Shown piece after piece: positions 17,042 through 51,744 of a stretch of 64,000 nucleotides of DNA. The stretch spans positions 32,001 through 96,000 of the IMG/VR virus record IMGVR_UViG_3300044658_000058. One strand, given 5' to 3'. The position numbers and the translations under genes are program-made. Below the pieces are notes generated by a model. That model was not told the DNA's origin, ran no database searches, and saw only the letters and a program-made list of their open reading frames with translations. This DNA is from a virus. Position 1 is the first letter of the stretch. Each line of letters begins with the position of its first letter.

Positions 17042-17119
17042 GCCCATGTAGGCCAATCGGTTAGAGTCGGCGGACTTAAAATCCGTACAGTGTGGGTTCG
17101 AATCCCACCATGGGCACCA
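17042..17119 (+). tRNA. tRNA-Leu(UAA) with short variable loop
   Basis: GCCCATG/CATGGGC acceptor, GCGGA-CTTAAAA-TCCGT anticodon arm, TTCGAAT loop, encoded CCA. Confidence 0.92.
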
Positions 17120-17134
17120 ACAACGGAGAATATA

Positions 17135-17356
17135 ATGAAATTGCGAATTCATATCGGCTGTAAACATTCCGATATGTCGTGGATTCAAATCGAAGATGAA
17201 CAGAACGACGTTCTTTTAGACCACGATGGTTACGGAACAGGTCTTGGTTCTCTGTCATCAGGCGATTATATGGAATTCGAGATTGACAATGATACAGGAA
17301 CCATCTTAGGATGGAAGCCTATCACTCTTGAAGAAATCAAAAACTTCAAAAAATAA
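17135..17356 (+). CDS. Hypothetical protein
   Basis: GGAG RBS; MKLRIHIGCKHSD...GDYMEFEIDNDTGTILGWK. Confidence 0.7.
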   Translation: MKLRIHIGCKHSDMSWIQIEDEQNDVLLDHDGYGTGLGSLSSGDYMEFEIDNDTGTILGWKPITLEEIKNFKK

Positions 17357-17362
17357 CATTTT

Positions 17363-17440
17363 CGCCCGTTAGCTTAGTTGGTCTAAAGCCCTCTGCTCAT
17401 AACAGAGTGATCGTCGGTTCGAATCCGACACGGGCAACCA
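17363..17440 (+). tRNA. tRNA with CAU anticodon (Met or Ile2) and C1xA72 mismatch
   Basis: CGCCCGT/ACGGGCA, CTCTG-CTCATAA-CAGAG, TTCGAAT, ACCA. Confidence 0.92.
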
Positions 17441-17443
17441 AAT

Positions 17444-17539
17444 TCCTCCGTTACGGACTCGTGCCGTCGCTTGGAGCCCCCTATATTTTTACCGGTCGGA
17501 TAGGGCACCGTTCAATTCGGGAAACGGAGGAGTCGACCA
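17444..17539 (+). ncRNA. Aberrant tRNA-like structured element
   Basis: TCCTCCGTT/AACGGAGGA stem, CCCTAT/ATAGGG, CCG-TTCAATT-CGG, ends in ACCA. Confidence 0.4.
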
Positions 17540-17555
17540 TTTTCAAAAGGAAAAC

Positions 17556-17885
17556 ATGACGACTTCGCCTTGGGCTAATTTCCAGCCCCCACAAGAACCA
17601 CAATCTGAATTCAAACCGTTCTTCTATGGGTTCGGTTCCAAAGAAATGAAAGAGCGGTTTCTAGCGAGAAATCAAGAGCTTAAAGAGAAATTGGAGCAAG
17701 CCAGCGTCCCAATTCTCGTCATTATGACATACTCAGTCGTTGACGTTCTGGTCGTGTCGTATAGGGACGATACCGACACAATCTGGATTGATCCTGAAAT
17801 TCCGGACGGTTTTTTCCGAATGTATCATGGCGATGATGGCAAAGCCGGTTTCAAAGAATTTAACTTTGATGAAAAACGGGATTGA
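17556..17885 (+). CDS. Hypothetical protein
   Basis: 109-aa ORF with AAGGA RBS. Confidence 0.7.
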   Translation: MTTSPWANFQPPQEPQSEFKPFFYGFGSKEMKERFLARNQELKEKLEQASVPILVIMTYSVVDVLVVSYRDDTDTIWIDPEIPDGFFRMYHGDDGKAGFKEFNFDEKRD

Positions 17886-17888
17886 ATT

Positions 17889-18080
17889 ATGGAAAAAGTT
17901 ATATATTGTCAGGAAATCAAGGCAGATGAATCCAGAAATTTGCCTATATATAGCAGAACCGTTTGGGAAGAGCCTTATTACGAACATGGCGATTCTTTTA
18001 ACGGTCGAGCGCTTCCTGTTTTGGTCGCCGCTGCATCGATAGCCGCTCTGATTTCCATCTTTTTGATGGCTGTTATCTGA
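17889..18080 (+). CDS. Small protein with C-terminal transmembrane helix
   Basis: Hydrophobic LPVLVAAASIAALISIFLMAVI end. Confidence 0.55.
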   Translation: MEKVIYCQEIKADESRNLPIYSRTVWEEPYYEHGDSFNGRALPVLVAAASIAALISIFLMAVI

Positions 18081-18087
18081 ACATTAA

Positions 18088-18164
18088 TGGAACGTAGCTT
18101 AGTCTGGTAAAGCCCCCAACTGATAATTGGGAGATCAGTGGTTCAAATCCACTCGTTCCAACCA
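18088..18164 (+). tRNA. tRNA-Ile(GAU)
   Basis: TGGAACG/CGTTCCA, CCCAA-CTGATAA-TTGGG, TTCAAAT, ACCA. Confidence 0.93.
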
Positions 18165-31103: not shown

Positions 31104-33023
31104 TTACTCACCAAACTTGCCAACGATTTCTTCGAAGGCCACACCGGTACGTGTTGCGATGAAGTTCAAACGAATGAATTCAGCTACACGGGCTGGCTTA
31201 ATGTAAATGTCACCTACCATTTCGTTGCGGTCGATAACTTCTGGTGTGTTGTTTGTTTCGTCACAGACAACTTTGAAGTCATAGATGCCACGACGGCCCT
31301 GAATGTCACGCAAGAATGGTTCAACCATGTTGCGGAACTGTGCACGTGTGAATTCATCGTTGAATTCGAACAACTGGTAACGAGACGCCTTCGCAATCGC
31401 CTTTTCGAGAACGATGAACAGACGACGGACGTTGATGCGGTCGAACGCCGATGGCTTCGAAAGCAATGTCTTCTGTCCGAAGAGAACTGTTCCATCACCG
31501 GGGAATGTCGCCACCGGATTGATGTTGTTCTTGTAGAGCGTGTCACGGTCGGCCTGACGTGGGTTCCAAGCAAGCTTGATCACGTTCTTGATCTGGCCAC
31601 GGTTGAAACCGGCAGCGGCCCACCAAGGATCACGGTCTGTGTCGGTCTTAACGTGAAGACCGGCAATGTCGCCGTTCATTGGAACATAACGGTACAAATC
31701 GTTGTAACGGTCGTACTGCCATTTCCAGTTGTTATCCAAAGCAGCATATGAAGTAACAGGCAGAGTATTTCTGTATGTTACGATATCCGCAGCTTCGTCA
31801 CCCTTGTTATTTACGGCATATGAACGTGGTGGAGACAAGAATGCAACACAGTCCAAACGAACTTCGCAAATGTTGTTAATGATGTATGTTGCCAATGTCT
31901 GTGTAGCGTCCGAACCAATAAGGATCGAGACTTCAACGTCTTCCGGAGAAGCAAACATTGAGTAACCACGAATCTTTTCCGAATTTCCGATGGTTGTTCC
32001 ATCAGAACCGTGATCAAGAGAACTGTTGATAGGCAAAACTGGCGCTACGAATGCCGTAGTCGAAGCTTGGTTACCAGTGTTTGTCAAAGATGAAGGATGA
32101 CCGGCCCAACGGATATAATCAGACTGTTGATTGATTACTTCCTTGTAATATGAAGTAGCACCATTGTCATACTTGGCATCTACAGCTTTCGAAATCTTCT
32201 GATAAACTTCAAGGACTTCGCCACGCTGATTTGTCCAAAGACCATCTTCGTCAACGACAACGACGTGCATTTCATCGTCTGAACCACCAAGATTTGCAAC
32301 GTAGTCAGAAGTACCCGGAGCGTTGTCAACTACAGTGTAGAATTCCCAACGACGCACGGCAGTCTGGCCAGTACCGCCAGCAATGTGACGTGAATCGAGA
32401 GTCAACGAAGTTGTATTACCGATTGCAGCAACAGAGTGAGTTTCGCCATTGATAACCAAAAGGTCACCAACAACAACCTGTGTTGTAAAGTTTGTTCCAG
32501 TACCGGTAACTGTAAGAGTATTTGCAGTAACGGAAACTGTACCAGTCAAAGTAGACTGATAAGCAGCCGCCGAAGGGCAAACCGCTACTTTCAAAGAGTT
32601 ACCCATAGCGCCAGCGAACTTAGCAATCCATGGACCAGTATTGAAAGAAGATTGAAGACTACCAGTGTCGTAAGAAGCAGAATATTCTTCATCGTTACGA
32701 ACAAGGAAACCGGCTGTACCGGCAGAAGCGTTGGTAGCTCTTAGAGCGGTGTTAGCGTTGTTATCGTTGACAACACGAACAATCCATAGGTTGTTAGCGT
32801 ATGCCAAGAAATTAGCAGCCGAGAACCAGTCGTTAGCGACAGTATTGTTTGGTTTCCAGAAAGTATCGACAAGCTCTTGTTCTGAATCGATAGAGACAAG
32901 CTGATCTACTGGACCCCACTGGAAAGAACCGGCCAAGCCACCTTCCGTAGTCGAAACCGCAGGAATGATATTGGTTGTGTCGAATTCTTTTACGTACACA
33001 CCGGCTGATAAATAGAATGGCAT
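31104..33023 (-). CDS. gp18: Contractile tail sheath protein
   Basis: SAGVYVKEFD, FQWGP, PWWAAAG.NRG, FDRINVRRLF. Confidence 0.97.
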   Translation of the reverse strand: MPFYLSAGVYVKEFDTTNIIPAVSTTEGGLAGSFQWGPVDQLVSIDSEQELVDTFWKPNNTVANDWFSAANFLAYANNLWIVRVVNDNNANTALRATNASAGTAGFLVRNDEEYSASYDTGSLQSSFNTGPWIAKFAGAMGNSLKVAVCPSAAAYQSTLTGTVSVTANTLTVTGTGTNFTTQVVVGDLLVINGETHSVAAIGNTTSLTLDSRHIAGGTGQTAVRRWEFYTVVDNAPGTSDYVANLGGSDDEMHVVVVDEDGLWTNQRGEVLEVYQKISKAVDAKYDNGATSYYKEVINQQSDYIRWAGHPSSLTNTGNQASTTAFVAPVLPINSSLDHGSDGTTIGNSEKIRGYSMFASPEDVEVSILIGSDATQTLATYIINNICEVRLDCVAFLSPPRSYAVNNKGDEAADIVTYRNTLPVTSYAALDNNWKWQYDRYNDLYRYVPMNGDIAGLHVKTDTDRDPWWAAAGFNRGQIKNVIKLAWNPRQADRDTLYKNNINPVATFPGDGTVLFGQKTLLSKPSAFDRINVRRLFIVLEKAIAKASRYQLFEFNDEFTRAQFRNMVEPFLRDIQGRRGIYDFKVVCDETNNTPEVIDRNEMVGDIYIKPARVAEFIRLNFIATRTGVAFEEIVGKFGE

Positions 33024-34369: not shown

Positions 34370-34400
34370 TTGACAAACGAATAAAACTCTTTTATAAATA
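34370..34400 (+). promoter_or_regulatory. Composite sigma70/late promoter for tmRNA
   Basis: TTGACA-17 nt-TATAAA; the -10 is also a perfect TATAAATA. Confidence 0.7.
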
Positions 34401-34404
34401 TACA

Positions 34405-34685
34405 TGAAACTGTTCGACGCCAAAGAGGATGACTGCAACACGGCGGTTCAAATCCGCCCACCTCCACCAAAACTCTCGACTCCACTTTATTTAGTCGAAA
34501 TATGGGGGTGACTTGGGATCGACTGCGGTAGGAATTTGAGGTTTAGGTTTCCGGCATTGTACCGCCGTTACCGGGCTAAACAAAGTAAGAGACAACGATA
34601 ACTTCGTTCCTCTGGCTGTCGCTGCCTAATCAGCAGTAAGCCAATGAGTTTTGGCGGTTGAACTTGGAAACAGAATCAACCGTCG
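34405..34685 (+). ncRNA. ssrA: Two-piece (permuted) tmRNA
   Basis: Acceptor piece ends GGCGG-TTCAAAT-CCGCC-CACCTCC-ACCA (34469); 34-nt spacer; coding piece starts GGGGGTG (34504) giving G3-U70; tag 34591-34629 reads DNDNFVPLAVAA*; outer boundaries approximate. Confidence 0.93.
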
Positions 34686-34711
34686 CTTCCATTTTTCAGG
34701 GAACAATTTGA

Positions 34712-34837
34712 GTAGAATATGAAACATACGCTCGCAATCCAAAGTTCTATAACGGAACGTTCTGTTGCCAGTGCAAAGAACACAAGCCTTTGAGTGAATT
34801 CCATTGGTCTGGCACAACGGAAGTGGTTGGGTCTTGA
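34712..34837 (+). pseudogene. Start-less fragment of a Zn-finger-like phage gene
   Basis: Frame VEYETYARNPKFYNGTFCCQCKEHKPLSEFHWSGTTEVVGS* follows an in-frame TGA and has no start codon for the N-terminal part. Confidence 0.4.
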
Positions 34838-39650: not shown

Positions 39651-40508
39651 TTACCATTTAAAATCTTTATTTCTTTTCACGAACGGAGATATTTCAGAGA
39701 AGTCCACAACACCATCGGTTTCTCTCGTAATAAGAGAATTGTCTGCTTGTTTGTCTGTGTCCTCAATCTGTACATCTTCATCAATGAGTGTGGCTTCGTC
39801 TGTGTCATCCTCCAATTTGATCGATTCGTCGTCTTCCATCGCCATTGGTGAGCGCATAAGATCGCCAGAGAACAAATCTTCGATAATATCGATTTCATCG
39901 TCGCCGGTATCAATTTTCTCGCTACTGTATTCGAACAATTCACAGAACAATTCATAGGTCTGCAATGCACCACCCTGATAGAAAATGGCGTCGTGTTGAA
40001 CGAACTTGATTTCGAAAAGACGTTGGAACGTCGAAACCCAGATTAGATCGCCTTCACGTGGCCGATCATATGGGATATAGTAGCCTTCGATATTTCCTTC
40101 TTCCAAAAGAATACCGTTCAACTGTCCCGGCATATACCGATTGGTAATTTCTTGTTCCATCGTGTCGTCATTTTCTGACATGAGATGTTCCGCTCTCACT
40201 TCTTCGAAGCGCTTGCGAGAAATGGAAAGATGCAGTTCGTCTTTGATCTGCACATCGAATTTCGACATAAAACGAGCGCCGTCAAAACCTTCCGTGTTGT
40301 TGGGATAAGCTTCGATTAAAACGGCGTCATTGAATGAATTCACGGTCGATTCACCAAAAAGATCATCCATGTTCACGGCTGTACGAGGCAAATAATTTAC
40401 CCAGAAACCCATATTTTTGATCGCCCCAATGGTGAGGTCTTCAAACATCTTTTGGGTTGGACCATAGATGTAGTTGTTGATGTATCTATTAGGTGAACGT
40501 GATGCCAT
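39651..40508 (-). CDS. gp14: Neck protein
   Basis: YLPR...D.LFGE, SKF, RPREGDLI, FEIKFV.H...FYQ. Confidence 0.93.
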   Translation of the reverse strand: MASRSPNRYINNYIYGPTQKMFEDLTIGAIKNMGFWVNYLPRTAVNMDDLFGESTVNSFNDAVLIEAYPNNTEGFDGARFMSKFDVQIKDELHLSISRKRFEEVRAEHLMSENDDTMEQEITNRYMPGQLNGILLEEGNIEGYYIPYDRPREGDLIWVSTFQRLFEIKFVQHDAIFYQGGALQTYELFCELFEYSSEKIDTGDDEIDIIEDLFSGDLMRSPMAMEDDESIKLEDDTDEATLIDEDVQIEDTDKQADNSLITRETDGVVDFSEISPFVKRNKDFKW

Positions 40509-42542
40509 CTATCGTCTCTTTATAAAGTTATTCAAGTATTTATCATATGAAAAATTATTTGGTTCGTTATCTGTTGTTCCGACTGTGCCAATAACCGTGT
40601 TGGTATTCTTCGAATATCCTTTGGTCTGATTGGCACTGATGAATGCTTTCAAATAATTGTCGTAAGTGAACTTGGCTTTGAAAGTTATAGTTCCTGTAGA
40701 AACCACGGTATCATTTTGTTCACGTTCGTTAACATCAGCCCAACGGCTTGTTTTCTCGATAATACCACTTGCGGTATCGTTATGCTCTGCTATGTTCGCA
40801 TTGGCATGAGTTAGAACTTTACCGCTTGAAGTTACAAGGTCACTTTGCTCTGTGGCCACCACAACAGCATGTTTCGTCTGTTTTGAAGTGGAAACAATTG
40901 AGTCGTTAGCCTCTATGGTTGATAGAGCACCATGAATGATATTTCTTGTAACCGAGACAAGAGTATCATTATTTTCTGTTACGGTTACACTACCGAATAC
41001 AGGGAGTTTACCACCAAAGGAGTCGAGTGTGTCATTGGCTTCTGTAACAGAAATTGAACCTTCGACCGATGTTGTGGCGGTTGCCGACAACAAATCATTT
41101 TCTTCGGAACTTGTTTCTATGCCGGTAATATCGGTTGTGGCATTTGCTGTTAGTTGGTCATCACCTTCTGTGACATTGCCAATTGCCGCAATAGATAGAG
41201 ATGATGTGCCGGAAACAGTGTCGTTGGCTTCTGTAGCAGACAGAGATGCCTTTACAGAAGGGTTGGCTGTAGATGCCAACGTATCACTGGCTTCTGTGAT
41301 CGAGGCGCTGGCCTGAATCAGAACACCAGCGGTATCAGCGATGCTATCATTCGCTTCGATGATCGATGCAGTTGCTTTGATAGCGATTGTTGCTTGTGAC
41401 CCAACCGTGTCGGCGGCTTCCGTAACAGAAGTCGAACCATGTGTTGCCAAGGCCGAAACGGCAGAAACGGAATCGTTTGCTTCTGTAATAGAGGCCGCTG
41501 CACGATTTAGGGAGAAACCAGATGCCGAAAGGGTATCATCCCCTTCTGATATCGAAGTGCTGGCCTTAATGGCAATAGTGCCTGTCGAAGCGAGGGTATC
41601 GTTCGCTTCGGTAACGTTCACAAATCCTACCGGAGCATTACTTGCGAACAATATATCGTTCGCTTCTGTAATCGAAGCGGCGGCATGTGTAGAAAGTGTG
41701 GAGGTAGACAACACAGAATCATCAGATTCTGTGTTTGCTACTGTCGCATGAACCGGAACCAAACCTGTGGCCGAAACAGAATCGTTTGTTTCTGTAACAG
41801 ACAAGATCGCCTTAACAAGTACTTGTGCGGTTCCTGATAGGGTATCGTTACCTTCTGTAATGGAAGCCGATGCCTTGATCAAAAGCCCGGCAACATCAGA
41901 CGCCGTATCATTGGCTTCTGTGATTGAAGCGCTAGCATGAGTCGCCAGAGTGGATGCCGAAGAAACTGAATCATCCGCTTCCACCATTGGAGCGTTCATT
42001 TCATAGGCATAAAATTCCCATGTATCCTTATTCAGGAATATCGCAAATCGACCATCGGCAGAAACGGAAATGGTATTGACCGTGAGATTCGACGTATCGC
42101 CAAGCCAATGCCATGTGCTACCATAATCCAACGACTGATATAGGCCGGTTGTTCCACCAACATTTGTTACAGAATATTGAATGGAACCGTCTGCCGAACT
42201 GGCTTGAACAACACCTATAGTGAAGGGTGTTGACGATGACCATGTTGTGCCGCCATCAAATGATCGATATAGAGTAGAGGTAGGCCATGAGACAACATCA
42301 ATGATGCTGACAAACAACCCATCGGAAGAACATATGATGGATTTGGCATCTGTTAGCGTAACAGAGGTTATCTGATTCCAAGTAGCACCAGAATCAGTTG
42401 TCTTGAACAATTTCTGCGAAGATAGCAGATAAGCGATTTGGCCGTCGCTGGACGTAGCAACTTGACGGGCAACCCCGGCTGGTGCACTCGTAACAAGAGT
42501 TTCACCTAATGTTACTTCGCCAAGTGTCCAAGAACCTAACAT
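40509..42542 (-). CDS. Fibre protein B: MLG..LGE..LGE leader, partial Asp-box propeller, ~21 x 21-aa ExxD repeats
   Basis: T/S-x-D-x-G-x-T-W boxes followed by ASITEANDT-type repeats. Confidence 0.75.
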   Translation of the reverse strand: MLGSWTLGEVTLGETLVTSAPAGVARQVATSSDGQIAYLLSSQKLFKTTDSGATWNQITSVTLTDAKSIICSSDGLFVSIIDVVSWPTSTLYRSFDGGTTWSSSTPFTIGVVQASSADGSIQYSVTNVGGTTGLYQSLDYGSTWHWLGDTSNLTVNTISVSADGRFAIFLNKDTWEFYAYEMNAPMVEADDSVSSASTLATHASASITEANDTASDVAGLLIKASASITEGNDTLSGTAQVLVKAILSVTETNDSVSATGLVPVHATVANTESDDSVLSTSTLSTHAAASITEANDILFASNAPVGFVNVTEANDTLASTGTIAIKASTSISEGDDTLSASGFSLNRAAASITEANDSVSAVSALATHGSTSVTEAADTVGSQATIAIKATASIIEANDSIADTAGVLIQASASITEASDTLASTANPSVKASLSATEANDTVSGTSSLSIAAIGNVTEGDDQLTANATTDITGIETSSEENDLLSATATTSVEGSISVTEANDTLDSFGGKLPVFGSVTVTENNDTLVSVTRNIIHGALSTIEANDSIVSTSKQTKHAVVVATEQSDLVTSSGKVLTHANANIAEHNDTASGIIEKTSRWADVNEREQNDTVVSTGTITFKAKFTYDNYLKAFISANQTKGYSKNTNTVIGTVGTTDNEPNNFSYDKYLNNFIKRR

Positions 42543-42551
42543 TTATTTTCC

Positions 42552-43676
42552 TTATGTTACAGTGCCAGCGGACCAAGTAATCAAAGTCCAACCTTGTGCC
42601 TGCCACTCGACTAAAATCATATCCCCTTGATTGTTCAATTTAACTGTAGTAGGGCTACTCCCATCCAATTTCTTAAAAGCATTGGTGAAATTTATTCTAT
42701 CCGATGCATTCGTTCTGGTCTGAAACTTCAATATAAATCTCGCTCCAAACACCAAGCCAGAAGGGGTATTCAAAGAAACGTTTTCATTTCCAGCACTACC
42801 GCTGGAAGTAAACCTTTGCTGATGGAAACTTGGCGTCACATTCAGTGTGGTTGCACCATTCGTAGTTTGGCTTTCATAAGCAAATTGAAAATTTGGATCA
42901 AGATTTTGAAAGAATACTTGTCCAGTGTCAGAAGTTGACATGATAAATTGGTTAGGGGTTGTAGTCACGTTGTTATAAATGAACAATGGAGTGACCCATG
43001 AGGCATCACCACCGGGACCACGAAACCAAATGCCATTAGTGGTGGCATTAGTGTTAACACCAGAACTTCCCATTACTACCCATTGATAATAATACGGATT
43101 CCATTCTAATTCGACAAACGCTCCTGTATAACCAAGAGAAAATGAAATATCAGCATCAGAACAAGTCACCGTATCACCGGGTGCAGATATAGTGTTCAAA
43201 ATGATAATTAGTTTGCGATTAAAACTCGTACTATCAAGATTTGCAGACGCCAATTTGATTACATTAGCTGTGCCTGAACCATTTGTTGTCAAACGGACGT
43301 AAGAAACATCAGGAAGAAAATATGGAGAGCCAACAAGAGTAATATCAAGTGGTTTATCAAAGTCTTCTGCTAAGATTACCCCCAAACGAACTTTAGGGGC
43401 GGAAGAAAAGTTTACGTTAGAATTACTGTTTGAAGAATTGTACACAAACATTCTACTAAGGTAAGAGCCTCCTACGTTCCATTCACCATAGCCGACTTCC
43501 CATTCAGAAGTTCCATTTTCTGCAATATAGTGGTAACCTTTACCAGAAACAATGTCCGGATCGGCTTCACTTGGAGAAAGGAAACCAGAGATCGTGCTGG
43601 CATAAACAAAGTTTCCAGTACCGCCACCACTGGCATTCCAATAGCAACGATTTATTTTTTGAGTAGAAAGTGGCAT
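42552..43676 (-). CDS. Virion fibre/adhesin-like protein
   Basis: N-terminal NR...GTG...GF...Y..E....WEVG.G....LSR...SSN domain as in phage fibres; own late promoter at 43700. Confidence 0.65.
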   Translation of the reverse strand: MPLSTQKINRCYWNASGGGTGNFVYASTISGFLSPSEADPDIVSGKGYHYIAENGTSEWEVGYGEWNVGGSYLSRMFVYNSSNSNSNVNFSSAPKVRLGVILAEDFDKPLDITLVGSPYFLPDVSYVRLTTNGSGTANVIKLASANLDSTSFNRKLIIILNTISAPGDTVTCSDADISFSLGYTGAFVELEWNPYYYQWVVMGSSGVNTNATTNGIWFRGPGGDASWVTPLFIYNNVTTTPNQFIMSTSDTGQVFFQNLDPNFQFAYESQTTNGATTLNVTPSFHQQRFTSSGSAGNENVSLNTPSGLVFGARFILKFQTRTNASDRINFTNAFKKLDGSSPTTVKLNNQGDMILVEWQAQGWTLITWSAGTVT

Positions 43677-43702
43677 TGTAATTTTCCTTTAAATAGAAAT
43701 AT

Positions 43703-46700
43703 TTATGATATAGCGGTAAAGTTCCATGTAGCGCCAACGTCGGTTGACACATACACTCCACCCGATTGAACAGCATAAATTACACCACCATTTGGTGATA
43801 CTGTTACACTTGTCCAAGCACCAGTTGTAGAAGGTGATGGTTGAGTCCATGTCACACCACGATTAGTCGAGACATATGGTGTTCCACTATCCGGCAGTGC
43901 TACAAGCAAATTACCATCATTTGACGAAGCGACGGCATTCCAGTTCGCAGATGGCAATCCATTGCTATTAAGTTCTGTCCATGTGTCGCCTTCGTTTGTA
44001 GAAATCCATGGATAACCAACTGTATCCACCCATGCACCAGCAAGGATGATCGATTTATCTCCGGATACGGCTACCGCACCAGACCAATTGAAGTTCAAAT
44101 CACCAGAATTGGTTCTGTAATATCCCTTACCGTTTGCTTTGATCGGAGCAATGGACGTGGCTGAAACAGAATCACCACTTTCCGTAATTGCCAGCGAAGC
44201 TTTTGCCGCAAGTCCCGCTGTTGATGATATTGAATCGTTGGCTTCCGTGTTTGATGCAGAAGCCTTGATTGCGATGGCCGATGTTGCCGAAATCGTATCG
44301 GGGGCTTCGGTAATCGAGGCAGTTGCATGAGTTGCCAGAGTAGAAGCGGCAGAAACAGTGTCATCGGCTTCTGTAATGGATGCCGAAGCGACAGGGCCAG
44401 ATACAGCCGTACCAGCCGCCGAAATCGTGTCGTCCGCTTCTGTGTTAGAAAGAGAAGCCTTGATCGCAACGGCAGATGTCGAAGAAACAGAATCGCTTGC
44501 TTCTGTAATGGATGCAGAGGCTTTTAGGGCAACTGTCGCTGGTGCCACAATCGTATCATCGGCTTCTGTTACAGAAGTCGTAGCCTTCAATGCTATCGTA
44601 GCTGGTGCGGCGATGGTATCACCGGCTTCCGTGATCGATGCAGCGGCCTTCAACGCAATTGTTGAAGTCGATGCAACAGTATCACCGGCTTCCGTAACAG
44701 AAGCCGTGCCTTTAATTTGCATTGCCGAAGTGGCGGAAACCGTGTCACCGGCTTCTGTGATCGAAGCCGTGGCGGTTGCAAGGTCTTGACCTACCCAATT
44801 ATCAGTATCATAGGCGAGGTTATCATAGTAAACATTGTAGCCAGAAGTATTAGGACCAACGGAGCCGCCATATTGATACCCAATATTGTCAGAAACATAG
44901 TTTGGTGTAGCAGTATAGATGACTGTGCCATTCAATCTAATAGTTACGACACCGGGGCTGCCTGTTTGAACAAAATATTCAAAGCAAGCCCATTGATTAT
45001 ATCCCCATCCTGTGATTTGCGTTTGGGTACTATTTGTATCCAGCCATATTGTTCCATCAGCTTTCAAAAGAATGTAAGCCGACATAATTGCATTACTTGC
45101 GCTTTCCATAGACACCAATTTGAAATCTTGATCTACAGTAAGTGCGGGCGATGGCTGATCAACATAGACCGCCATTCTACCATAAGAGGTTTTGGAACCG
45201 AATGAAGACGGATTCGACCAACTAAAGGTAGAACCGTGGTTATCCGTTGGAAGTCTTAGACAATATGTTCCTGTGCGAGGATGTGTTGTGACAACAGTAG
45301 TCGAACCGGGAGCCACAAGATCGGCGGTTGTACCCGTTTCAAATCCGGTCGAGAACGTTTGACGGATATGCGCCGCTCCGGAAGACGTATCATTGGCTTC
45401 CGTGATCGATGCTGTTCCTGCAATCGGCGTAAGTTGAATTACAGAACTTACAGTATCATTCGCTTCTGTTATCGATGCATTTGCAGTATTTGGCGTACTG
45501 TTATGGCTTGCTGATGATAGTGTATCATCGGATTCGACAATATTTGTTTGGTACAGAACAAAATAAATATCCTGAAAAGCAGAACCACTATCCCAACTGC
45601 TTGTTCCAGAATTATATGTGAACAACATACCATTAGCATATGTGTCTGATATGCTGTACCCAACCCAATAATAGTTGGATGCATCAAGTGCGCCTGTTCG
45701 TCTAATTACAAACATGTAGGTTGTGCCGCCTGTTAGCGCAACGCCACCTGAAAATGTAAAGCTGGCATCAGCACGGGATGTCGTTAATGAACTTCCCGCC
45801 ACTGTGGTTGACGTTCCGAGCACAGTCGTTCCGGTTGAGTCTCGTATCTCCATCACAACGCTATCAGATGGAGAACCGGTCTTCATCATTTTCAGACCGA
45901 TTTTGGTCAATAAAACATTTGAAGTTGGGATAAATGTTTCGCCATAATATGCCGCACTACTACCGAAACCAAATTGAGTATCGCTACCAACATTTGTCTG
46001 GCTTAGGAACGCTATATCCGTTCCGCCATTGACGGCAGTGATCTTTACCGTACTTGCGGATGCAACTGTATCATCAGCTTCTGTGATAGAAGTGGTGCCA
46101 GTAATACCAAATGTTCTTACTGTGTATTCATTATATTTTAGTGTGCCGTTATCATTGACAATATATGGCAGGACCATGGAACTGCCACGTTGATAGATTG
46201 TCGCATCTTGGTTAAGACCACCACCCATTGATGTTGCGCCAGTGAATGCGGCGACGCCTGTCGTCTGTGTCGAGCCGTTATTAGATGAACTTGACACATA
46301 GACAATTTTATTGTTCGTGCTGACCCATAGAATCCAGAGAGTGCCATTATCCCATGCGGTTATACCAACGCCACTGGTGCCAGCATCAACGCCACTGGTG
46401 CCGCCAGTGTTAATCGTTGGCGTGTTTCCACTATCGAAATAGAGATTTCGAACACCGTTGCCTGACGATGCACTATCAACACCAGTGAACGCAACCTTTT
46501 GCACTGACGAAATATTTGCACTTGAACCAACAACATTACCGGCAGTGTTTGTTGCTACACCAGTGCTGACCGTTTGCAGCACGTTGCTACTATTCAGTGT
46601 TCTTTGAACAAATGTTGATGCTGGATATTTGTAGCCGAAGTGGATAGAGTTCGATGCGCCCATAACGCAATCGCTGACATAACCATCGAGTGCACCACCA

Positions 46701-47686
46701 GCGTCAACAGCAACGTTAGTTGTCCATGTGTTTGTTGCAGTTCTTCTCGCATAAACAACACGTGCATATGAGGTAGCCATCGATGCAACACGTGCACCGT
46801 TATACAAAATGATTGGCTGATTATCAGATGTTCTGAAAATAATGTCGCAATTGAATACGGTGGCGGCTGCACTATCCGTTGGGTTGAATGATGCCTGAAC
46901 GACTTCCTTGATAGGGAAAGTATCGCTCGTCATATCAAATGTTTGATAGTGAATATTTGTGGACGTGCTGGAACCACTCATCACTGCCAGATGAATAGTG
47001 CTGCCATTTTGATAGCCTGAAATAGCTTGTACGGCTGTTGCATAACCAGTGCTTGTAGCAATACTTGACCAAGATGTATCCGGTGAAGTAGATTTATACG
47101 CCTGTAGTGTAGTGGAAGTGGTAGAATCACGACCGAAGAAGTAATATGCTTCCTGATACAGCTTGTAAGCCATATCAATGCTGCGAGCAGTGTATGTAGA
47201 ACCATCATACCAATAACTATCTCCACCAGCGTTTGATGAAGAAGTAGATGTCCAGAAATAGAAATTAGTTGCAGCAGGAGCACCACTTCTTTTCATAACC
47301 AACATATACTGAGTTGATGCAGACAAAGAAACGACGTTGCTGAATGCAAAATCTACAAAAGTTCCGCTTGAAGTGCCTAATGTGCTACCATCAACTAGTG
47401 ATGATGTTGCTATTACAGTAGAACCGGTAGAATCTCTTATTTCAACGTATACGTTGTCCGTAACAGTGCCAGACCTATAGATAGGTAATGACACACCTGA
47501 TATAGAATAATTTGCGCTTGGGGTAAAGGTCTGTCCAATAGCCTGATGACTAGTATCGTTACCTATTGCATAGCTAGAGCTAAGAGTTGTGAAAGACTCT
47601 GATGTTATAGGCGTCAACGAATTTTTGAACGGTCCAACAGTCGCTATTGCCGTCGAAATACCAGTAATTGTTACAGGCAGTGCCAT
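43703..47686 (-). CDS. Fibre protein A: multidomain adhesin with ~14 ExxD repeats and a C-terminal partial Asp-box propeller
   Basis: Duplicated G.TF.P...EIRDSTG domain, lectin-like segment, repeats and three STxxGxTW boxes. Confidence 0.75.
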   Translation of the reverse strand: MALPVTITGISTAIATVGPFKNSLTPITSESFTTLSSSYAIGNDTSHQAIGQTFTPSANYSISGVSLPIYRSGTVTDNVYVEIRDSTGSTVIATSSLVDGSTLGTSSGTFVDFAFSNVVSLSASTQYMLVMKRSGAPAATNFYFWTSTSSSNAGGDSYWYDGSTYTARSIDMAYKLYQEAYYFFGRDSTTSTTLQAYKSTSPDTSWSSIATSTGYATAVQAISGYQNGSTIHLAVMSGSSTSTNIHYQTFDMTSDTFPIKEVVQASFNPTDSAAATVFNCDIIFRTSDNQPIILYNGARVASMATSYARVVYARRTATNTWTTNVAVDAGGALDGYVSDCVMGASNSIHFGYKYPASTFVQRTLNSSNVLQTVSTGVATNTAGNVVGSSANISSVQKVAFTGVDSASSGNGVRNLYFDSGNTPTINTGGTSGVDAGTSGVGITAWDNGTLWILWVSTNNKIVYVSSSSNNGSTQTTGVAAFTGATSMGGGLNQDATIYQRGSSMVLPYIVNDNGTLKYNEYTVRTFGITGTTSITEADDTVASASTVKITAVNGGTDIAFLSQTNVGSDTQFGFGSSAAYYGETFIPTSNVLLTKIGLKMMKTGSPSDSVVMEIRDSTGTTVLGTSTTVAGSSLTTSRADASFTFSGGVALTGGTTYMFVIRRTGALDASNYYWVGYSISDTYANGMLFTYNSGTSSWDSGSAFQDIYFVLYQTNIVESDDTLSSASHNSTPNTANASITEANDTVSSVIQLTPIAGTASITEANDTSSGAAHIRQTFSTGFETGTTADLVAPGSTTVVTTHPRTGTYCLRLPTDNHGSTFSWSNPSSFGSKTSYGRMAVYVDQPSPALTVDQDFKLVSMESASNAIMSAYILLKADGTIWLDTNSTQTQITGWGYNQWACFEYFVQTGSPGVVTIRLNGTVIYTATPNYVSDNIGYQYGGSVGPNTSGYNVYYDNLAYDTDNWVGQDLATATASITEAGDTVSATSAMQIKGTASVTEAGDTVASTSTIALKAAASITEAGDTIAAPATIALKATTSVTEADDTIVAPATVALKASASITEASDSVSSTSAVAIKASLSNTEADDTISAAGTAVSGPVASASITEADDTVSAASTLATHATASITEAPDTISATSAIAIKASASNTEANDSISSTAGLAAKASLAITESGDSVSATSIAPIKANGKGYYRTNSGDLNFNWSGAVAVSGDKSIILAGAWVDTVGYPWISTNEGDTWTELNSNGLPSANWNAVASSNDGNLLVALPDSGTPYVSTNRGVTWTQPSPSTTGAWTSVTVSPNGGVIYAVQSGGVYVSTDVGATWNFTAIS

Positions 47687-48261
47687 TAGATAACCTCACC
47701 ACGACCACGCTGGACAACGAAGTCCGGGGAAACTAATTCTTTCCATTGTTCCTTGGTTTTCCAATTCAACCCACCGCCAGAACTTGGAGTCGAACATGTA
47801 ACCCAATGCACAACTTTTGGAGCCAGCAAACGCAAGGCAGAAGAAAGTTCTACACATTCTTCGTCATATAGATTTGGAAGAACATCTTCCGTTATAGCTA
47901 TTGTGATCGGTTTCCCTATTGCATTTCTGATATTGTTTCTCGATTCCTCGGTCAAAGAAGATTCGTTCAAAATAGGAACTGTAGCTTGTTTTGCTTTGTG
48001 TTCGTGAACCCATGTAGAAATGTCGGTAACGATCACCGATAGTCCGGCTTCAATCCAATCCTCTGCTACCCATCCGAACGCTCCACCAATCAAAACAATG
48101 CCGTCTTCCGGAGTCAGACTAAGAGCATCCTTAAGAATCATGTGATCGTTGCCAAAATATTGTTGTTTAGCAATGCGGTCGAAACCGACGATTTGGCCAT
48201 CAATTTCACAACTATAAAGTTGGGACCAAGTAGATTCGAGATTGCTATCGACCAATGGCAT
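47686..48261 (-). CDS. Putative SAM-dependent methyltransferase-like protein
   Basis: VLIGGAFGW, VTDIS, TEDVLP resemble class I motifs. Confidence 0.45.
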   Translation of the reverse strand: MPLVDSNLESTWSQLYSCEIDGQIVGFDRIAKQQYFGNDHMILKDALSLTPEDGIVLIGGAFGWVAEDWIEAGLSVIVTDISTWVHEHKAKQATVPILNESSLTEESRNNIRNAIGKPITIAITEDVLPNLYDEECVELSSALRLLAPKVVHWVTCSTPSSGGGLNWKTKEQWKELVSPDFVVQRGRGEVI

Positions 48262-48303
48262 TATGGATTTCCGGGATTATTGTATATTCCTATTTAGTTA
48301 AAC

Positions 48304-48330
48304 AAAAAAAGGCGGCTGTTACGCCGCCTT
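48304..48330 (-). terminator. Rho-independent terminator
   Basis: AAAGGCGGC-gtaaca-GCCGCCTTT followed by a T run. Confidence 0.75.
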
Positions 48331-48355
48331 TCGATATTCAAAAGTGAATTTACTA

Positions 48356-48760
48356 TTAAGCGTTGCCCGCAGTAAGCGTAAAGCTTGTAACAGAGAATGA
48401 CTGACCAGTTGCGAACGATGTGTTGTCAACGGTCATGTCGCCACCACCACCAGTAGCAGTTACAGTGCCTTGCATGTGGCATGTACCGGTCGATGAAAAG
48501 ATACGGAAGTGACCGGCAGTACCGGTAGCGTCCGCAGAAGTATCCTGCCAAGTACCTGTCATAGACTTTGTACCACCAGATGCAGCGGCCATCCAATCGG
48601 ATGGAAGCGTACATGTTGCGAGAACAGTACCGGAGTTAGCGGCTGCGCAAGATGCAGGAGGGGCACCAGATTTGATCAAAAGAACAGCCGATGTTCCGGT
48701 TGTCGATTCAACAACATCAAGACGTGCGTTACGAACGGCAACAGAATATTGTAGTGTCAT
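48356..48760 (-). CDS. Small beta-rich virion protein (candidate fibre subunit)
   Basis: MTLQYSVAVRNARLD...GTAGHFRI...QGTV...DMTVDNT; flanked by a perfect TATAAATA, GAGG RBS and a terminator. Confidence 0.75.
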   Translation of the reverse strand: MTLQYSVAVRNARLDVVESTTGTSAVLLIKSGAPPASCAAANSGTVLATCTLPSDWMAAASGGTKSMTGTWQDTSADATGTAGHFRIFSSTGTCHMQGTVTATGGGGDMTVDNTSFATGQSFSVTSFTLTAGNA

Positions 48761-49941: not shown

Positions 49942-50552
49942 TAGCTACCAGATACCGGCCATAGCGTGTCGTTTGTGTAATCGCCCGGAACCGGGGAAGA
50001 CTGTTTGATCACACGGGCGGCAAAAATCAATTTGGTTTCCCATGCGGCGGCGGCTTGGCCAAAAGCAAAACACGTTTGGGCATCCATTCGTGTTAGAGAG
50101 TTGTCATCAGCAATCCAAACGAAGTCCGAAGAGCCGCCATGCCAACGATAGTTACCAGTTTGTGCGCCAGCGGCTATGGCAAATCCGGCCAAAGTAGCAG
50201 CGCCAATGATGCGAGCCTTCGATTCATTGTCCATCGCATAGGATTTGCCTGCGAACTGGAAACCTGTCGCAATGCGTTTGTCACGCTCTGCATTCACTTC
50301 ATCAGCCGTTGGAACCTTGACTGATGTGGTCCAGACATATTTCGGAACGCCATTGGTTACCACGACATTTTGTGATACGCCAACATAGCCAACCGGAATA
50401 GGGTCCGCTGGCGAAATTTCTTTCAAAGTATACGTTCCATTATCCCAACCGGCATAGGCAGGAGAAGTAACATCGTTCCCTATAACGAATGTACTGCCAG
50501 ACAAAACTTGTTTCACAACAGAATTGTCAGATTTCTTTATTAATGCTAACAT
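49941..50552 (-). CDS. DUF4376-like tail fibre assembly protein
   Basis: VNAERDKRI..GF, WIADDNS...MDA, DYT...LWP. Confidence 0.75.
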   Translation of the reverse strand: MLALIKKSDNSVVKQVLSGSTFVIGNDVTSPAYAGWDNGTYTLKEISPADPIPVGYVGVSQNVVVTNGVPKYVWTTSVKVPTADEVNAERDKRIATGFQFAGKSYAMDNESKARIIGAATLAGFAIAAGAQTGNYRWHGGSSDFVWIADDNSLTRMDAQTCFAFGQAAAAWETKLIFAARVIKQSSPVPGDYTNDTLWPVSGS

Positions 50553-51190
50553 TTAAGTCCTTCGTAAATCTCTATATCTTTCTCATAGTATTTATTCACC
50601 GCAGCTAAGGTGGCTTCATCATAGAATGTGTCAACCCAATCTTTTATATCTACATTTTGGAGTGACTTATTTTGATGTTTTAGCGGTTGCTTGATGTCTA
50701 TATTGTATGTTTCGACAAATTCTTGAATATGCTCATCCAATCTATCGTAAAGCCACCAAGTTCCAATTTCTTTTCCTCGATAGGTCAGAAACGTCGATTG
50801 GAGTTGATTTTGCCATGGTCGATCCGGATAATATCCAGTGTTGACGACGGACTGTCTGAAATCCTTAATTGATGGATTTTGAACCAAGCCCTGTTTTGCT
50901 CGGTAGAGGTAGAGGCTAAGAACCCGGTCGATTGGATTTCGGACCACACCAACGATGGTTTCGTTTGGATTCAAGAGCCCATTGTCGATGGCATAGGTTA
51001 CATCCATGTGCGAGTGTTCGGCGTGTACAGGTTCCATATTTTGGGACCAATGAATATTCTCTGTCGCATAATATTTCGAATACATGTCTTCCGGGTGTAT
51101 AACGTTATCAATGAAGAAACGCCGAATGGAGGTTGATGCATTCTTCGGCACATTGATGAAATTGAATTTAAAACGTTTGATACTAATCAT
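50546..51190 (-). CDS. Sulfotransferase-family protein
   Basis: 5'-PSB FINVPKNASTSI and 3'-PB VRNPIDRVLSLY motifs. Confidence 0.82.
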   Translation of the reverse strand: MISIKRFKFNFINVPKNASTSIRRFFIDNVIHPEDMYSKYYATENIHWSQNMEPVHAEHSHMDVTYAIDNGLLNPNETIVGVVRNPIDRVLSLYLYRAKQGLVQNPSIKDFRQSVVNTGYYPDRPWQNQLQSTFLTYRGKEIGTWWLYDRLDEHIQEFVETYNIDIKQPLKHQNKSLQNVDIKDWVDTFYDEATLAAVNKYYEKDIEIYEGLKC

Positions 51191-51744
51191 CTAAGCAGAA
51201 AAGAATTTAAAGTGAGCCTAACATTACCTATAGATTTATAAGAATGCCATGTAACACCAGTTTTACCAGCAAAGACCATCATTCTATTCTGTTGCCATTC
51301 GATTTGCTTGACAAAATTCTTGTCCTTGTCGTAAAGAAGAGTTCCTTGACCGTTCATTGGGTAGAGGTAGGTAACGGCTGACAAAACTTTGTTTTCAGCT
51401 TCATCATGAATAGGATGTTCAGAGGCGTCCAAGCACAGGATACATTCACCATAGAGCGAGAGCTTCTTATGTTCCCGACGATCTGGAAAATAGTCAAGCA
51501 AAGCGTTCGTGTCTCTGGACAACAGTAAATTTCTTGTAATGGGAAATTCTGAATTTTCGTACAAATTATTTTTGGAAATGAAAATTCGCTTGGCCGTTTT
51601 GGTTACAAATTGTTCCGGCTTTGTTTTGAGATTGTCCCAAATTTCTCGAATTGCCGCTGATGTATCATCGTAATAATCATCGATGGTTACATGCGGCCAT
51701 GGTTCAGTTGAAATCGACAATTCGTTGTTCAATTCGTTCTTCAA
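51187..51744 (-). CDS. 2OG-Fe(II) oxygenase
   Basis: PWPH..IDD, IHDE...K.LS.V.YL, GTLLY, WHSY, RLTL. Confidence 0.78.
   Translation of the reverse strand: MKNELNNELSISTEPWPHVTIDDYYDDTSAAIREIWDNLKTKPEQFVTKTAKRIFISKNNLYENSEFPITRNLLLSRDTNALLDYFPDRREHKKLSLYGECILCLDASEHPIHDEAENKVLSAVTYLYPMNGQGTLLYDKDKNFVKQIEWQQNRMMVFAGKTGVTWHSYKSIGNVRLTLNSFLLR

Follow-up and report, generated by a model that had tools for sequence, protein, structure and literature searches.

How two parts of a single protein domain can come to lie at the ends of genes that are not neighbours is the question raised by the fibre locus of a phage represented by IMG/VR virus record IMGVR_UViG_3300044658_000058 (153 kb). We analyzed positions 32,001 to 96,000 of this record, a stretch of 64,000 nucleotides (nt) that we refer to as the window; all positions below are window positions. 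PHROG matches to baseplate wedge, tail sheath, portal, sheath stabiliser and neck proteins mark the phage as a T4-like myovirus. On its minus strand, the locus reads 191-aa gene, P0001, P0002, P0003, T4 neck protein and gp15. P0001 (1327 aa) ends, and P0003 (677 aa) begins, with part of an Asp-box beta-propeller. The 374-aa gene P0002 sits between the two halves, 26 nt after P0001 and 9 nt before P0003. A first-pass annotation, made from the sequence alone, had proposed that one ancestral fibre gene was split by the insertion of P0002. We found uninterrupted homologues at the same place in related phages, and comparison with them makes an insertional fission by a cassette very likely. To the fuller explanation, in which the halves reassemble and P0002 docks at the joint to give a branched fibre, we assign a probability of roughly 0.6.

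The divided propeller and its intact homologues

All the Asp-box motifs quoted in the first-pass annotation were present. Three blades occupy the end of P0001 (Asp-boxes at residues 1229, 1273 and 1314; the protein ends at 1327), and three more, followed by an incomplete seventh, the start of P0003 (Asp-boxes at residues 48, 94 and 137, then ISVSADGRFAIFL). Over the 2004 residues of P0001 and P0003, an Asp-box-like pattern matched six times, three times within the last 100 residues of P0001 and three times within the first 145 of P0003. The 21-aa repeat described in the same annotation was also real, as ITEADDT recurs at an exact spacing of 21 residues eight times in P0001 and 15 times in P0003 (18 and 32 times in the intact relatives described below). 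The propeller breaks into this repeat at one common phase with a domain inside P0001 (...K.xNG[domain]x[IM]VExDD). Repeats of 63 nt were not detected at the DNA level by Tandem Repeats Finder (TRF).

Using the neck protein as a synteny anchor, we retrieved four relatives of the locus (L009, L010, L011 and L012). The first three are the same sister phage, recovered from three samples; its neck protein shares 91% identity with that of the window. L012 is an outgroup whose neck protein is 67% identical. Between a 192-aa gene and the neck gene, the sister phage carries a single open reading frame (ORF) of 1750 aa and the outgroup a single ORF of 1960 aa. The uninterrupted homologues that the first-pass annotation had suggested looking for were thus found, and they are syntenic. 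The long proteins of L011 and L012 share with the window pieces the N-terminal ~20 residues, the 21-aa repeats and the C-terminal module; the first 20 to 23 aa of P0001 are ~70% identical to theirs. In both, the propeller domain runs without a break and shows seven S-x-DG strand motifs as well as six Asp-boxes.

The C-terminal piece of P0001 and the N-terminal piece of P0003 are colinear with this intact domain and do not overlap (39 to 40% identity over ~335 aa in a MAFFT alignment). By BLASTP, P0001 residues 1186 to 1327 matched L011 residues 935 to 1071 (E value, 5e-21), and P0003 residues 18 to 182 matched L011 residues 1086 to 1250 (E value, 1e-15). By these placements, the break falls past the Asp-box of blade 3, in the loop that joins blades 3 and 4. 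Nothing in the intact propeller corresponds to NFTAIS-stop and the leader MLGSWTLGEVTLGETLV, the sole additional residues. The proposed division of a single ancestral gene by the 374-aa gene was supported by syntenic intact homologues with which the fragments are colinear. In a separate comparison, the propeller domains of L011 (7535-8545) and L012 (7139-8164) were 82% identical, versus ~45% for the N-terminal globular domain and 67% for the neck proteins, which suggests that the propeller has been exchanged between fibres as a cassette.

The segment KGYYRTNSGDLNFNW in P0001 is among the best conserved (L011 counterpart, KGFFVTNSGDNSFNW). Judging by where it falls in the alignment, this segment should complete the ring by pairing with the final strands, and in the window those strands are part of P0003. 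The alignment would divide the propeller into ~3.25 and 3.75 blades, with two interfaces between the chains. Both fragments still have complete open frames, Shine-Dalgarno-like sites and every Asp-box and core motif. Elsewhere in P0001, the large N-terminal globular domain (residues 181 to 545; 45520-47146) is 44 to 49% identical to that of the relatives. Its L011 counterpart holds an Asp-box (STDNGATW) at residue 476, so that this domain may be a second, degenerate BNR-type domain.

The direction of the change was read from the same relatives. For the neck protein and for gp15, L011 shares 91 to 92% identity with the window, and each of the two is 67 to 69% identical to L012. Since sister and outgroup are both intact, fission in the lineage of the window is the parsimonious reading. 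A caveat on this polarity is that the fibre as a whole (40559-47658) is a hypervariable allele that shares no DNA homology with L011, so that it may have been exchanged as a block. Megablast of 40000-48000 gave nothing among GenBank phages, and tblastn of P0003 returned only two distant repeat matches.

The inserted gene and its leader peptide

Seven of the 12 minus-strand copies of ATAAATA in the window lie 24 to 37 nt upstream of the start of a structural gene, a placement that indicates the late-promoter type of this phage. One copy precedes the P0002 ATG by 24 nt, the usual distance, in agreement with the earlier proposal that the 374-aa gene has its own late promoter. We found no convincing terminator between P0001, P0002 and P0003.

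P0002 had no family in Pfam, PHROG or NCBIfam, and its family profile had no match in the PDB. A HMMER scan of 1.84 billion representatives with P0002 as the query gave 748 matches. Among the best 150 of these, mostly residues ~5 to 108 were matched, to the extreme N-terminus of proteins of widely differing length. One protein with this N-terminal module, P0126, bears a Peptidase_S74 fibre chaperone domain. An N-terminal placement on variable proteins is what one would expect if the module serves to anchor fibre proteins. A T4 gp10-like branching domain was not detected in the P0002 family with Pfam and PDB profiles; the only hint of one was an Atlas row of 0.86, with T4_gp9_10_N on 38% of members, below lead level. 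Three observations together indicate that P0002 is foreign to this phage group: its guanine-plus-cytosine content is 40.2% versus 45% in the flanks, the complete sister genomes lack its N-domain, and its homologues are located in podovirus-like contigs. The C-terminal ~110 aa of P0002 (LLEW..W.VI...GVVT) also occur as a separate small protein (L106:2501-3277 and L107:229-756), which adjoins portal or connector genes of other phages and hints at a head- or neck-associated role for this module.

The first-pass annotation had regarded the MLGSWTLGEVTLGE leader of P0003 as new. This did not hold, as the same peptide motif heads the gene after P0002 homologues elsewhere. The closest homologue, P0125 (contig L089), is 42% identical to P0002 and is followed, after a 9-nt spacer and in the same frame, by a 218-aa protein that starts with MLGSYTLGEVTFGETL and is unrelated to P0003 in its remainder. 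The leaders of the window and L089 share 14 of 16 residues (88%) despite eight synonymous codon differences. Set against the 42% identity of P0002, this indicates that selection acts on the peptide. Downstream of more distant P0002 homologues, leader-like N-termini head unrelated proteins of 129 to 356 aa in L101 (MNLFGALLELALGEGP), L102 (MFGYGTFAQLTFAQGP), L104 (MFDIGTFDRLTFDQQP) and L108 (MLGFAPLGGLPLGGSP; the P0002 homologue is partial here). The motif follows every full-length homologue that has a readable downstream gene (four contigs) and one partial homologue, so that, with the window, six contexts show a conserved peptide on otherwise unrelated downstream proteins. A leader pattern, written after the fact, occurred only in these six among the 5396 Met-starts in all fetched sequence, a count that shows specificity and is not an independent test. 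Contigs L105, L106 and L107, which share only the C-terminal ~110 aa of P0002, have no leader-type neighbour downstream.

Because the leader recurs with P0002-type genes in five unrelated phage contigs, we infer that it was imported with the cassette. The sequences point to an apparently undescribed two-gene module, made of a P0002-type protein and an N-terminal peptide of the form M-[LF]-G-x-x-T-[LF]-x-x-[LV]-T-[LF]-G-E, which seems to behave like a docking pair. That the leader is the docking partner of P0002, an idea of the first-pass annotation to which this recurrence lends indirect support, is, in our judgment, fairly probable.

On the side of P0003, the crossover lies near residues 15 to 22, where TSAPAG resembles both SSGPSG of L089 and LTAAG of L011. 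No target-site duplication was found at the locus. The sole notable direct repeat is 28 nt long and 71% identical, with one copy in the leader (42505-42532, SWTLGEVTL) and the other at the end of P0002 (42550-42577, TWSAGTVT-stop). In L089 the two places read YTLGEVTF and YLIGSPTFT, and the aromatic residue changes together (W/W versus Y/Y). This repeat could be a duplicated strand or chance.

Proposed reassembly and docking, and competing explanations

In the explanation that we favour, an ancestral giant fibre gene just upstream of the neck gene encoded 21-aa repeats into which globular domains were plugged, among them an Asp-box beta-propeller, apparently of seven blades, that its own N-terminal strand would close. 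Into the loop between blades 3 and 4 a foreign cassette recombined, bringing the late-promoter-type motif, P0002, the 9-nt spacer, and the start codon and ~17 codons of the gene that usually comes next. A TAA inside the imported promoter-type motif now terminates the upstream fragment, P0001. Comparison with the relatives and with the other contigs shows these steps. The propeller may well re-form from two chains, P0001 contributing the closing strand and blades 1 to 3 and P0003 contributing blades 4 to 6 and most of blade 7, and would then keep P0001 and P0003 joined through two chain interfaces, of which one would be a beta-sheet common to both chains. P0002 is probably recruited by the imported N-terminal peptide of P0003, in the way that conserved peptides of receptor-binding protein 2 (RBP2) recruit RBP1. 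The outcome, reached in one recombination step, would be a three-protein branched fibre without covalent links, with P0002 hanging from the leader at the joint. For the reassembly of the half-propellers taken by itself, we put the chances a little below even. More tentative still is the general idea that a propeller split 3+4 snaps back as a load-bearing fibre joint and that the cassette is a portable plug-in which, placed in frame in any fibre surface loop, turns the fibre at one stroke into a branched receptor-binding organelle of three proteins, across phage families.

Each element of this explanation belongs to a known kind, namely genes in pieces, RBP docking pairs and two-chain propellers, and reassembly and docking are both plausible. 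The closest genetic parallel is the nrdA gene of Aeh1, in which the split enzyme cannot be active without the tails made by the insertion of mobE (Crona et al. 2011, PMC3045599). There, as in the window, a T4-like phage gene was cut in two by an inserted gene, and insertion-derived sequences sit as tails on the fragments. The window also has what is expected of a gene in pieces of this type, an uninterrupted orthologue in relatives with which the fragments are colinear. Function in Aeh1 was restored at the protein level without splicing. The two cases differ in that the insert in Aeh1 is a homing endonuclease and its target an enzyme, whereas here a fibre-type gene without an endonuclease domain entered a structural propeller, and the imported tail is a candidate part of a pre-existing two-gene docking module. 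If the halves do reassemble, the locus would contain a natural split-propeller joint, a structural counterpart of Aeh1 nrdA, in which insert-derived sequence helps keep the pieces together.

For the docking step, the dual-RBP systems of KP32, K11 and KP34, podophages of Klebsiella, offer a model. In KP32, RBP2 docks by its first 29 residues on RBP1's branching domain, and deletion of residues 1 to 29 abolished growth on the RBP2-specific host, from which the authors concluded that RBP2 was not incorporated (Latka et al. 2026, PMC13352976). As in those phages, the upstream gene here has an N-terminal anchor-type module, and the gene after it begins with a short peptide that is conserved on variable proteins. 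Unlike those systems, with which it has no detectable sequence relation, the present candidate pair is grafted inside another fibre rather than at a tail adaptor.

A two-chain propeller has precedents in Sec13 and Seh1, each an open propeller of six blades to which Nup145C, Sec31, Sec16, Nup85 or Sea proteins supply the missing blade (PMC9646525). The likeness lies in one closed propeller made of two polypeptides as a rigid non-covalent joint, which for the window is a proposal. Sec13 and Seh1, however, are WD40 proteins whose 6+1 split is ancient and conserved, whereas the split here is in an Asp-box propeller, ~3+4, apparently recent and seen in one phage lineage. From this locus one can see how a single step may give a phage fibre a branch. 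Both the state before the event (the intact sister and outgroup genes) and the donor module (in podovirus-like contigs) are open to comparison. The module of P0002 and its peptide may also be of interest for the modularity of phage receptor-binding proteins, and for annotators the locus is a caution that half-domains found where genes of a fibre locus begin or end can be genuine.

Several observations weigh against the favoured explanation. No second split lineage was found among viral contigs, metagenome contigs and 5.8 billion proteins. The split form is known from one phage only, and the event may be recent. The curated Pfam thresholds for BNR, Sortilin-Vps10 and PSII_BNR were not reached (for BNR, 13.8 bits versus a cut-off of 27). 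AlphaFold2 (AF2) modelled the intact propeller of L011, from a two-row alignment, as all-beta at low confidence, with a predicted local distance difference test (pLDDT) score of 51. Its model of P0002 linked to the leader, with the two TAA codons read as Gly, was likewise of low confidence (pLDDT of 42, and ~24 for the leader).

On the assignment of the propeller family, Pfam also found no propeller family in P0123 and P0124. Propeller homology is based on HMMER matches to proteins that carry PF15902, PF14870 and PF02012. The repeated Asp-box pattern SxDxGxTW was present as six boxes in the window (3+3) and as six in the propeller domain of each intact relative. There were weak matches to Ycf48 (for the half in P0003) and to GH74 structures. 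As in the Asp-box (BNR) propellers of the Ycf48, sortilin-Vps10 and GH74 types, the boxes stand in successive blades; unlike those, the domain is here a plug-in within a repeat fibre and stays below the Pfam thresholds, and no residues could be assigned to catalysis or ligand binding. Searching with the model of the intact propeller, Foldseek gave beta-propellers throughout among the matches listed. Together, AF2 and Foldseek support the fold class and do not prove the seven-blade count, for which seven S-x-DG strand motifs can be counted in the alignment. A deeper alignment for this model was dropped because single-propeller homologues align out of register. Two sets of candidates for fused relatives were rejected: P0004 and P0005, the top database matches to the half-propeller, are generic multi-propeller proteins, and L005-L008 and L092-L098 hold distant Asp-box proteins only.

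The fission could also have led to something other than a rejoined fibre. The halves might stay apart, P0003 hanging on P0002 through the peptide, P0002 anchoring itself on the virion and P0001 serving as a shortened fibre. The wide distribution of the P0002 N-domain on variable fibre-like proteins, as expected of a virion anchor, and the association with the leader in six contexts would both agree with such an arrangement, and KP32-type systems work in this way (PMC13352976). We nevertheless regard it as unlikely, since two open half-propellers would expose their cores. A milder argument is that the complete sister genomes have no P0002-type anchor and the module otherwise occurs in podovirus-like contigs, so that no matching socket is expected on a T4-like virion. 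Far less probable is the closure of a ring by each half through homo-oligomerisation, for example in a trimeric fibre. Propeller fragments can form such rings, and our fold search listed 6r60, with two five-bladed propeller fragments assembled. In the window, however, the pieces are unequal and exactly complementary to the seven blades of the relatives, and the closing strand of P0001 has partner strands in P0003 only.

A recent neutral or harmful disruption, in which a dispensable fibre was truncated and P0003 and the half-propellers are remnants that have not yet decayed, would suit a form found as a singleton, and the neck whisker fibres of T4 are reportedly dispensable in the laboratory. 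Against this, the cut lies exactly in an inter-blade loop and cost almost no ancestral residues. P0003 moreover has a start codon, a Shine-Dalgarno-like site, 677 open codons and a transcription unit shared with P0002, and the phage was abundant enough to be assembled in two samples. We consider such a disruption improbable. The idea that an intron, an intein, translational bypass or read-through yields a single polypeptide after all has some appeal because T4-like phages have introns and T4 gene 60 a translational bypass, and because P0002 and P0003 share a frame. It was largely refuted here, as was an assembly artefact. Rfam found no intron in 40000-48500, its only match being a sub-threshold small RNA outside the locus, and Pfam found neither a Hint nor an endonuclease domain. 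The 1.16-kb gap contains an entire gene that has a promoter of its own, the frames of P0001 and P0002 differ, and between P0002 and P0003 stand two TAA codons. Finally, in a Logan assembly of SRR23978804, a 17.3-kb contig that was recorded in two samples carries the same four genes and is 100% identical to the window over 7125 bp; as this assembly is independent, the split is not a chimera.

Layout of the locus and neighbouring features

The positions of the elements discussed above are given in Table 1. The fibre locus lies just upstream of the neck protein gene, the place where T4 has wac.

Table 1. Elements of the fibre locus, with positions in the window
Feature	Position	Strand	Remarks
191-aa gene	47686..48261	-	Directly upstream of P0001; synteny anchor (192 aa in L011 and L012)
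P0001, 1327-aa N-terminal fibre fragment	43703..47686	-	Conserved N-terminal ~23 aa, globular inserted domains, 21-aa repeats, half-propeller
Half-propeller N (P0001 residues 1186-1327)	43706..44131	-	Closing strand KGYYRTNSGDLNFNW and blades 1-3, by BLASTP and MAFFT
Late-promoter-type motif (C)ATAAATA	43700..43706	-	Upstream of P0002 ATG; overlaps P0001 TAA stop
P0002, inserted 374-aa fibre-type gene	42552..43676	-	N-terminal ~105 aa, anchor-type module that heads hundreds of variable phage proteins
9-nt spacer GGAAAATAA	42543..42551	-	Shine-Dalgarno-like AAGGA; length and reading frame equal to L089
Imported leader MLGSWTLGEVTLGETLV (P0003 residues 1-17)	42492..42542	-	Candidate docking peptide
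Half-propeller C (P0003 residues 18-182)	41997..42491	-	Blades 4-6 and three strands of blade 7, by BLASTP
P0003, 677-aa C-terminal fibre fragment	40509..42542	-	Leader, half-propeller, ~19 21-aa repeats, conserved C-terminal module
T4 neck protein (gp13/gp14 family)	39651..40508	-	Directly downstream of P0003; synteny anchor

The ATAAATA motif of the neck gene (40537-40543) falls within the 3' end of P0003, in the codons of the conserved C-terminal YDKYLNNFIKR, and DNA homology to L011 starts again at 40559. The conservation of the fibre C-terminus may therefore partly reflect the promoter and a recombination flank. At the other end of the locus, a strong terminator-like hairpin on the minus strand (48307-48332; 10 pairs and a T-run) lies between a 134-aa virion protein gene and the 191-aa gene and marks where the fibre genes start as a transcription unit of their own.

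Among the structural genes upstream of the fibre, the region 50546-51744 encodes a 214-aa protein with a weak match to the galactose-3-O-sulfotransferase family and a 185-aa protein with a weak match to a PHROG family named 'endonuclease V'. Elsewhere in the window, ARAGORN reported a permuted transfer-messenger RNA (tmRNA) at 34376-34720, with the tag DNDNFVPLAVAA, and three tRNAs (Leu-taa, Met-cat and Ile-gat) at 17042-18164.

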